From: a virus
DNA: 54,525 bases
Virus genome (UHGV): UHGV-0179380
Reading direction: 5' to 3' (one strand)
Position numbers and translations under genes: made by a program. Of this stretch, positions 16,286 to 16,348 are shown piece by piece. The notes beneath the pieces were generated by a model that ran no database searches, had not been told where the DNA came from, and saw only the letters and a program-made list of their open reading frames with translations. How positions within the stretch are numbered: the stretch's first letter is position 1; each line of letters opens with the position of its first letter.

Positions 16286-16348
16286 ACAAAATGTGATCTA
16301 TGCCTCTATTTTATACAAAATGGCTTTCCTACAACGAATCCATTTTGT
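16286..16348. promoter_or_regulatory. three motif copies incl. perfect dyad ACAAAATGG-N16-CCATTTTGT upstream of tape measure
   Basis: ACAAAATGT 16286-16294; ACAAAATGG 16315-16323; CCATTTTGT 16340-16348. Confidence 0.5.

Follow-up and report, generated by a model that had tools for sequence, protein, structure and literature searches.

Dimers of the lambda repressor CI are joined through their C-terminal domains on operators 23-24 bp apart, an arrangement for which Stayrook 2008 reportedly provides the structural model. Other repressors follow different rules. C1 of P1 and gp71 of mycobacteriophage L5 have folds unrelated to that of CI and act as monomers on asymmetric sites, and the 'stoperators' bound by L5 gp71 keep a strict orientation relative to transcription. 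[quoted passage not shown] Each such cassette combines a promoter for the following gene with a hairpin that attenuates transcription arriving from further upstream, and the cassettes sit where exchangeable accessory genes adjoin.

The mEpimmI phages, a new and common family of gut coliphages described in 2025, share one immunity group (PMC11893012). They encode a repressor resembling lambda CI, a Q-like protein and an N-like antiterminator (Gp17) that works at three nut sites (PMC11893012). Expression of the repressor Rep021 confers immunity, infection by six mEpimmI phages being blocked (PMC11893012); Rep probably recognises sequences other than those of lambda, and on operators the same paper says no more (PMC11893012). 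The DNA analysed here, a stretch of 54,525 nucleotides (UHGV virus genome UHGV-0179380; hereafter the window), is an E. coli prophage of this group, to which mEp021 and MagusPhagus belong, and its insertion site adjoins host abgT. Tested stretches of the window are 82-94% identical to Escherichia phages MagusPhagus, mEp010, mEp021, mEp044 and mEp554. The Q-like gene is followed by small ORFs up to the lysis genes near 30 kb, then by the terminase, head and tail genes, these on the minus strand. Searches of the whole window returned no Rfam family at gathering score and no tRNAs.

An initial annotation of this prophage had pointed out two perfect dyads with identical spacing at two distant loci and had taken them for two targets of a single dimeric DNA-binding protein. 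The operator-like character suggested by that annotation was retained in our analysis: both dyads look like protein-binding operators, and their fixed spacing is meaningful. The single dimer and the restriction to two targets were not retained. We propose that each dyad is a pair of adjacent predicted operators for Rep, the lambda-CI-type immunity repressor encoded by the same prophage (45715..46362), and we put the probability of this reading, drawn from sequence comparison, at roughly 0.68.

Composition and conservation of the two dyads

The dyad ACAAAATGG-N16-CCATTTTGT occurs at 16315-16348 (dyad 1, arms 16315-16323 and 16340-16348) and at 32151-32184 (dyad 2, arms 32151-32159 and 32176-32184), exactly where it had been reported and at no third place in the window, and no match was obtained in 100 dinucleotide-preserving shuffles. 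The surroundings given for both dyads were likewise confirmed. On one side of dyad 1, the tape-measure gene begins (13930..16272, minus strand; so named in mEp021 and MagusPhagus); on the other is an accessory unit of the plus strand, made up of a small ORF (16430) and a signal-peptide protein (16582..16995). Dyad 2 lies in the small-ORF island, within a 100-bp gap that has small minus-strand ORFs (32211..32426 and 31837..32109) on either side and that is the first non-coding gap downstream of the Q-like gene. It is directly followed on the minus strand by the hexamer TATAAA (32150->32145) and marks a mosaic junction, the upstream and downstream genes differing between relatives.

The 9-mer ACAAAATGG proved to be the inner part of a longer, partly palindromic word of 15 bp, T(A/T)TAC(A/G)-N3-(C/T)GTA(A/T)A, which we predict to be the recognition unit. 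Each dyad consists of two such words (Table 1) with their strong halves outward, giving TATACA-N28-TGTATA, and with centres 25 bp apart, which corresponds to about 2.4 helical turns. The right word of dyad 2, ATGCCATTTTGTATA, has a perfect outer half-site; the outer half of its left word, ATAACAAAATGGCAC, is imperfect. One dimer gripping two 9-bp half-sites, as had been envisaged, was rejected on the basis of this geometry: the centres are 25 bp apart, and each arm belongs to a full 15-bp site with an internal symmetry of its own.

Among 2.9 million viral contigs, the perfect dyad was found in 29 DNA stretches, 27 of which represent one or other of these two dyads in contigs of the mEpimmI type; a literature search with the 9-mer ACAAAATGG matched unrelated primer sequences only. 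Perfection of the arms is not conserved, since many relatives have ACAAAATGT, ACAAAACGG, ACGAAATGG or ACATTTTGT as arms. The 16-bp spacing is invariant (26 of 26 distinct dyad-1 sequences and 15 of 15 distinct dyad-2 sequences), and the TATACA-N28-TGTATA layout of dyad 1 is kept at constant spacing in 26 distinct relatives. Arm positions vary in a defined manner, with A or G at position 3, free choice at positions 4-6, T or C at position 7 and G or T at position 9, all of which are degenerate positions of the word; the arm variants of dyad 2 (ACGAAATGG, ACAGAATGG and CCGTTTTGT) also differ at degenerate word positions. Arm changes in the 26 distinct dyad-1 sequences include G9 to T (n=11), C1' to A (n=4) and T7 to C (n=3), and they break pairing without any compensation on the opposite arm. 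Such uncompensated changes, combined with a constant 16-bp spacer, fit two proteins placed side by side better than a hairpin.

Distribution of the word and of its paired layout

The word is abundant in the window. TACAAAATG is the commonest 9-mer, the overlapping ACAAAATGG ranks second, and the leading AT-rich 9- to 12-mers all derive from this single word. ACAAAATGG is present in 13 exact copies, and in 50 copies when at most one mismatch is allowed, against 21 expected. Several copies read ATACAAAATGTAT, which is a palindrome, and it is from these copies, together with the variants seen in relatives (TGG to TGT, ACA to ACG and T7 to C), that the consensus T(A/T)TAC(A/G)-N3-(C/T)GTA(A/T)A was generalised. 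Perfect 15-bp sites were found at 11304, 45565 and 48344 (3 versus 0.05 expected), and sites matching at least 11 of the 12 word positions number 9 for 2.1 expected. Within a word, one half is strong (TATACA or TTTACA) and the other is usually weaker (TGG.. or TGTA..). The palindromic consensus does not account for ATGG, a string that is strictly conserved in many copies.

The words also recur as pairs. At least four copies of the 40-bp paired layout are present, one of them at the early promoter next to rep. Under strict criteria, pairs with 25-bp spacing are dyad 1, the early promoter and 12887/12912, that is, 3 as compared with 0.06 in shuffles; looser criteria add dyad 2 and 11286/11311, both with 25-bp spacing, and 41491/41515, with 24-bp spacing. 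The complete unit T(A/T)TAC(A/G)-N28-(C/T)GTA(A/T)A is present three times in the window for 0.1 expected. One of the pairs, at 12880..12919, also exists in MagusPhagus (L004 21175-21214). With 13 exact copies of ACAAAATGG, nine sites at 11 or more of the 12 positions and at least four paired layouts, the initial notion of two targets could not be maintained.

Table 1. Coordinates of the words, paired layouts and landmark genes in the window
Feature	Coordinates	Strand	Sequence or remarks
Host abgT	1..1446		
Three words between tail-fibre gene start (4289) and plus-strand lipoprotein gene (4467)	4297..4374		
Three words in divergent gap 11271-11534	11279..11355		ATACCAAAATGGATT (11279-11293), TATACAATATGTATA (11304-11318), GTTAACAAAATGGCG (11341-11355)
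Third copy of 40-bp layout	12880..12919		TTTACAAAATGGCTT ... GCAACAAGATGTATA; between minor-tail gene 12441..12794 (minus) and plus-strand ORFs
Dyad 1	16312..16351		Words TATACAAAATGGCTT (16312-16326) and AATCCATTTTGTATA (16337-16351); centres 25 bp apart
Dyad 2	32148..32187		Words ATAACAAAATGGCAC (32148-32162) and ATGCCATTTTGTATA (32173-32187)
RNA hairpin of dyad 2	32151..32184	-	15 pairs, 4-nt loop, then a U-rich run itself part of the stem
Q-like gene	35724..36452		Pfam PF03589
Word cluster just upstream of third nut site	37909..37987		TATACAAAACGGATA (37909-37923), GCGCCATTATGTGAT (37943-37957), ACGCCATTTTGTAAA (37973-37987)
Two words in direct orientation	41484..41522		CTTACAAAACGGATA, AATACAAAATGTATA; 24 bp apart
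Single word at 3' end of N-like gene	44911..44925		TTTACATTTTGTATT; overlaps last two bases of ORF 44924..45214
Paired operators (predicted) at leftward early promoter	45565..45604		TATACGCCCCGTAAA (45565-45579), AATCCATTTTGTATA (45590-45604); centres 25 bp apart
Immunity repressor gene (rep)	45715..46362	-	Pfam HTH_3 (N-terminal) and Peptidase_S24 (C-terminal)
Control region right of rep	46345..46447		ATACCATTTTGTTTT (46345-46359), GTCACAAAACGTGTA (46398-46412), ATTCCATTTTGTAAA (46433-46447)
Perfect palindromic word	48344..48358		TATACATTCTGTAAA; directly before ribosome-binding site of gene 48376..49494
Integrase	53431..54477		

Copies of the word are mostly intergenic and are located on both sides of rep, upstream of the third nut site and after the N-like gene; every gap at a boundary between structural genes on the minus strand and accessory genes on the plus strand also contains the word. 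TATACAATATGTATA, in the divergent gap 11271-11534, is a perfect palindrome 25 bp from ATACCAAAATGGATT. The palindromic TATACATTCTGTAAA has a twin, ATTCCATTTTGTAAA at 49481-49495, ahead of the DnaB-like helicase gene. Copies keep their places in MagusPhagus, and alignments of several relatives reveal the word sites as conserved islands amid more variable intergenic DNA, as in the cluster upstream of the third nut site, where the words are conserved between variable stretches in six distinct relatives. Relative to local genes, the word is read in both directions, and half of the single copies are antisense. CRP-like and FNR-like sites adjoin some of the words.

Such a distribution is reminiscent of the sites of P1 C1 and of the L5 stoperators, which also comprise many copies of a short word scattered in intergenic gaps, including gaps within operons. 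By likeness to stoperators, repressor bound within operons could here block a passing polymerase as well as initiation. The resemblance ends there: stoperators are asymmetric and have a single orientation, whereas the sites described here are partly palindromic, show no orientation bias, often form 25-bp pairs and accompany a CI homologue of the S24 type.

The repressor gene and the immunity regions of related prophages

The solved structure closest to Rep is that of the lambda repressor (3BDN, E 8e-20, residues 15-208), and Rep is a homologue of lambda CI over both domains. The only strong canonical promoter near rep is the early leftward promoter TTGACT-N17-TATATT (10/12; minus strand, 45591->45563). 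The 40-bp unit found there embraces this promoter, with the -35 box between the two predicted operators and the -10 box inside the outer half-site. TATACGCCCCGTAAA, a perfect palindrome, overlaps the -10 box, and AATCCATTTTGTATA abuts the -35 box. The word on the -35 side is near-invariant in 27 distinct relatives, containing ACAAAATGG in 24 and ACAAAATGT in 3. The inner half of the promoter-proximal word varies (TTTACG, ATCACG, ATCACA) despite a repressor that is about 96% conserved, which counts against our reading.

Right of rep, the first of three words falls within the first codons of the gene. These words are 53 and 35 bp apart rather than 24-25 bp, which also counts against our reading, and no strong canonical promoter and no convincing rightward promoter were found in this region. 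The two control regions that flank rep have no sequence in common other than TCCATTTTGTAWACTT and the nut boxA. The rep mRNA is probably leaderless, like that of lambda cI transcribed from PRM.

Compared with the CI/OL-OR system of lambda, the immunity region of the window thus has a homologous repressor and partly symmetric sites that flank the repressor gene and overlap early promoters. The characters of a CI-type system that we found are short, partly symmetric sites, their position on either side of the repressor gene and at early promoters, and a repressor combining HTH and S24 domains. Spacing of the CI type (about 2.3 turns) is present at the pairs and absent right of rep, where the intervals are 35 and 53 bp. 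Neighbouring sites of a pair are 24-25 bp apart from centre to centre, as against 23-24 bp in lambda. The two systems diverge in several respects. The word is 15 bp long and has another sequence, with TATACA as half-site; spacing right of rep is irregular; no cro is evident in the mEpimmI group; and where lambda CI is not known to use sites other than OL and OR, the window has paired units (at least four) and single sites (about twenty) at a long distance from rep.

To link the word to a protein, we relied on position and on comparison with other phages. Homologues of Rep sharing 38-55% identity with it were obtained from a protein database search, and genomic context was taken for five groups; two scans of reference bacterial genomes found no Rep relatives. 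The homologues come from viral contigs (L118-L120, 38%), from a metagenomic phage contig (L197, 55%), from Enterobacter (L198, 50%), from a metagenome (L199, 44%), from Serratia (L201, 40%) and from Citrobacter (L200, 50%, with a TQG variant of the recognition helix). The N-terminal arm of Rep is conserved, the string MKTKWYDLAK being identical even in a 38% homologue (L118). The recognition helix is conserved as well, reading (T/S)KGxxxHW across homologues and TQG in one group, and that of L197 is identical to the helix of the window Rep.

All five groups (5/5) possess a divergent cro-like gene, and the gap of 90-125 bp between cro and rep contains three words of the form xATAC(A/G)-N3-(C/T)GTATx. 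In four groups they are spaced by 33 and 26-27 bp, in L197 by about 30 and 35 bp, and the last word overlaps a TATAAT located directly before the rep start codon. Beyond rep, a 40-bp pair with 25-bp spacing surrounds a clear promoter in every group examined there, four of the five (L197-L201). The -35 boxes of these promoters (TTGACG, TTGCGC, TTGAAA, TTGCAT) stand between the two words, and their -10 boxes (TATATT, TATACT, TATAGT) are inside the outer half-site. In the group with the TQG helix, A replaces T as the outermost base of the half-site. The contig L197 further matches the window away from the immunity region: words follow its N-like gene, where the perfect palindrome TATACAAAACGTATA (at 11280) takes the place equivalent to TTTACATTTTGTATT, and precede its helicase gene and the neighbour gene, at equivalent intercistronic positions (5255, 6707). 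Since comparable words occupy the immunity regions of these other groups, the word follows the Rep family and sits at the places of CI-type operators. We consider this comparative evidence decisive for the predicted link between word and repressor. The word itself, its enrichment and spacing, its place at the early promoter in the window and in the Rep-related groups (on the promoter side, L197-L201), and the homology between Rep and CI are computed results; Rep as binder, its cooperative binding and the effect of binding at the two dyads are what we infer from them.

The cro-like proteins encoded beside rep in the five other groups are expected to share sites with the repressor, so the binder could be another phage protein. 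Under this alternative, the words would be bound by a Cro-like or another early protein of the phage, such as the HTH_36 protein of 84 aa encoded by the first gene of the rightward operon, or else by a host protein, and Rep would use different sites. The lack of an obvious cro in mEpimmI phages leaves room for such a protein, and further palindromes do exist near rep, namely CTTGCAAAGACGCAAG at 46472-46487 and TTGACTCG-N22-CGAGTCAA around the early promoter; the A-rich upstream arm may resemble the proximal subsite of an UP element at -46 to -38. We nevertheless judge this possibility to be slight, as the words track the Rep family in six phage groups whose other early genes differ and occupy exactly the places expected of CI-type operators. 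Host factors were considered separately: the word was set against the consensus sites for CRP, FNR, Fis, IHF, TyrR, MarA, ArcA, OmpR and LexA and none fits, and the near-confinement of the perfect dyad to the mEpimmI group among the 2.9 million viral contigs also argues against a host protein.

If Rep is the binder, two Rep dimers would bind side by side on each dyad and hold each other via their C-terminal domains, a cooperation predicted from the homology with lambda CI. By analogy, Rep bound at dyads 1 and 2 in a lysogen would shut local initiation, perhaps from weak internal promoters, or block passing polymerase. Genes that would stay silent comprise those for the tape measure and the tail, the accessory unit next to dyad 1 and the small-ORF and lysis region. 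Away from rep, sites lie between genes of the replication operon, in the small-ORF and late region and in the tail operon. We mention, as a tentative extension to which we attach less than even odds, a prophage-wide network run by a lambda-CI-type repressor from about twenty sites, several of them cooperative 40-bp pairs, in which immunity would involve silencing or road-blocking at many internal points instead of at two early promoters and one pair would double as an RNA hairpin or attenuator.

Most likely, the dyads are a new example of a familiar type of switch, and what is less ordinary is the wide scatter of paired sites in late and structural regions. For the mEpimmI phages, the operator consensus, the geometry of the paired sites and the map of candidate sites are testable with the existing Rep021 expression plasmid. 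Occupation of the distant sites would mean that a lambda-type repressor directly controls late, structural and accessory modules, and would bear on how prophages quiet internal promoters and accessory genes. Should only the rep-adjacent sites be bound, the set would amount to ordinary operators plus look-alike words.

Promoter-like boxes and the RNA hairpin of dyad 2

Several features of the dyads are shared with the PeSLs of T4-type phages. Dyad 2 is a short conserved unit whose hairpin overlaps a -10-like box and precedes a ribosome-binding site and a start codon, and its mosaic junction belongs to an island of small orphan ORFs. It could be argued that the dyads are composite promoter and stem-loop cassettes located at accessory-gene junctions and spread by recombination, without the involvement of any specific trans-acting protein. 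Outward -10-like hexamers abut both arms of each dyad (TATAAA and TAAAAT at dyad 1, TGtTATAAA and TATACT at dyad 2), and the distance from dyad to minus-strand start codon is 41-42 nt in both cases. The plus strand of dyad 1 and the minus strand of dyad 2 are homologous past the arms, reading CCATTTTGT(T)ATAAAGARGCTRAAG ... GGAGGnT..AAAAATGAAA at the start codon. Finally, most relatives have a perfect CRP-consensus palindrome centred about 60.5 bp upstream of the dyad 2 TATAAA (about -60.5).

These features do not add up to a near-consensus sigma-70 promoter. A consensus promoter scan yielded a single weak candidate at the dyads, CTGCCA-N16-TATACT on the plus strand, which is antisense at dyad 2. 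On the strands reading towards the genes, a recognisable -35 box is absent at both dyads, a result that also counts against our operator reading, as one may ask whether there is anything at these places to repress. The hexamers mostly lack the final T and belong to the operator half-site TGTATA; the TATAAA and TATACT within it consequently provide no independent evidence of a promoter, and the TATAAA of dyad 2, initially annotated as a -10 box, is better described as part of the outer half of the word. Homology exceeding 15 nt is limited to one pair of copies (plus strand of dyad 1, minus strand of dyad 2), whereas PeSLs are conserved over dozens of copies, and the host of these elements is a temperate siphovirus. 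Cassettes of this kind would account neither for the half of single copies that are antisense to local genes nor for the immunity regions of five other phage groups, with their words and 25-bp pairs. Although we regard it as unlikely to explain the dyads themselves, the cassette idea may account for the duplication of the paired unit. Back-to-back sigma-70 promoters were rejected for similar reasons: the hexamers are the half-site TGTATA, there is no -35 box, and one in two of the single copies faces in the wrong direction.

On the transcribed minus strand, dyad 2 forms an RNA hairpin, conserved in relatives, that had escaped the initial annotation. Its fold has an energy of -20.5 kcal/mol (z -5.3). 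Across 15 distinct relatives, 99.6% of the cells are paired, with one cell unpaired; in six pairs a single partner varies and pairing is kept, through G-U or through G-U to Watson-Crick replacement. Eight of nine substitutions keep pairing on the minus strand only, and on the plus strand three of the pairs become A-C mismatches in every or almost every sequence. Double compensatory changes were not found among the 15 distinct relatives, and the operator consensus permits the arm changes just as well; independent support for the hairpin hence comes from spacer positions only.

In part, the hairpin resembles a Rho-independent terminator, with a core of eight moderately G+C-rich pairs (GGCAUUGU/GCAGUGCC) followed by AUUUUGUU. 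In the GenBank record of mEp010 (PP180001.1), the dyad 2 element is annotated as Rho-independent terminator T8, predicted by ARNold. It differs from such terminators in that its U tract pairs with an upstream A tract, a pairing that is conserved. A consensus terminator scan of the window lists neither dyad, which for dyad 2 is explained by the U-rich run belonging to the stem. Dyad 1, for its part, has no G+C-rich core and folds through its A-U arms only, and in 15 of 26 distinct relatives the innermost pair of these arms is disrupted.

These observations bear on the suggestion that the dyads are RNA elements only, such as terminators or processing or stabilising hairpins in long minus-strand transcripts, the likeness of their arms being an incidental product of A-tract and U-tract composition. 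Apart from the T8 prediction and the stability and strand preference of the dyad 2 hairpin, this suggestion agrees with the dependence of the operon on N-like and Q-like antitermination (PMC11893012) and with the presence of other terminators in it. The coreless dyad 1, with its broken and uncompensated innermost pair, the silence of the terminator scan on both dyads and the lack of compensatory changes in dyad 2 all speak against it. Hairpins would moreover leave unexplained the single copies, the direct pairs and the promoter-flanking sites in other phages. We accordingly hold an exclusive RNA function to be improbable. As a function common to the two dyads, a hairpin or terminator was rejected, folding and pair counts favouring the minus strand of dyad 2 and not dyad 1.

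Within the paired-operator reading, the 15-pair hairpin would represent a second use of dyad 2, and it may attenuate or terminate read-through transcription; we regard such a role as plausible. A late promoter with a Q-binding site at dyad 2, suggested by the position relative to the Q-like gene and by an AACGATG string that may resemble the start of the lambda late transcript, was also considered and set aside, because dyad 1 and the other copies of the word would not be accounted for.

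The repressor gene and the nut sites

The gene for Rep, the lambda-CI-type immunity repressor, lacks a ribosome-binding site, and a -10-like TATAGG ends 8 nt ahead of its ATG (window 46362-46376); in relatives, a TATAAT is found immediately 5' of this start codon. The rep mRNA is probably leaderless and would in this respect resemble that of lambda cI. The first rightward gene beyond rep, at 46669, encodes an 84-aa HTH_36 protein. The gap between these two genes (46363-46668) contains a nut site, and no cro-like HTH gene divergent from rep was found there in this phage. A divergent HTH_3 gene is present in five other prophage groups encoding Rep homologues (loci L118, L197, L199, L200 and L201 compared).

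The BoxA-like sequence GCTCTTTAAAAATCCGG, once as the variant CACTTTAAAAATCAGG, occurs with small adjoining hairpins at three places in the window (Table). Their positions are consistent with the three published nut sites of the mEpimmI phages, at which an N-like antiterminator acts (PMC11893012). Two of the three are preceded, at 10-80 nt, by an operator word, the 15-bp putative Rep site.

Features located in the window and in related loci
Feature	Position	Strand	Remark
BoxA-like CACTTTAAAAATCAGG	45504-45520	-	variant
BoxA-like GCTCTTTAAAAATCCGG	37872-37898	-
BoxA-like GCTCTTTAAAAATCCGG	46526-46560	+
CRP-like palindrome	4335-4350
CRP-like palindrome	11256-11271
CRP-like palindrome	37950-37965
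CRP-like palindrome	about 5240-5262		locus L127
CRP-like palindrome	just upstream of dyad 2		loci L014-L024
Small ORF (MKNVNYRPNEHERYADFIEEMLKALKK)	16430-16513	+	ahead of signal-peptide protein 16582..16995

CRP- and FNR-like sites

Several operator words are adjoined by CRP-consensus palindromes (TGTGATC-N4-ATCACA), each with GATC inside. Most relatives carry a perfect TGTGATCTTCATCACA 6 nt upstream of dyad 2, the paired operator words at 32148..32187, its centre at about -60.5 from the adjoining TATAAA; the window's own copy is degenerate. Separately, an FNR-like site, TTGATTTATGTCAA (window 4376-4389; perfect form TTGATCTATATCAA in one relative), lies upstream of a plus-strand gene (4467..4715) coding for a lipoprotein of the superinfection-exclusion type.

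Late region, prophage ends and minor features

About 25 nt ahead of the holin start (30146), a strong terminator-like hairpin, ACCCGGCACCGCGCCGGGT, is followed by TTTTT (window 30171-30189, minus strand), in a position resembling that of lambda tR'. The late promoter acted on by the Q-like protein was not located in the window. Read in the plus frame, the small ORF MKNVNYRPNEHERYADFIEEMLKALKK shows apparently synonymous changes among relatives, whereas in the records of mEp010 and MagusPhagus it is the other strand that carries an annotated small ORF at this position.

The abgT transporter gene of the host makes up the left end of the window (1-1446), and a phage integrase is encoded near the right end (53431-54477). 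The window thus represents a prophage flanked by host DNA on one side rather than the genome of a free phage.

Within ORF 52424..52603, at 52460-52473, two overlapping half-words form a perfect 14-bp palindrome, ATTTTGTACAAAAT. Finally, the word ATAAGAGGTGA(A), repeated where genes of the structural operon adjoin (window 1589, 18224, 21141 and 21559), is probably a shared ribosome-binding region.
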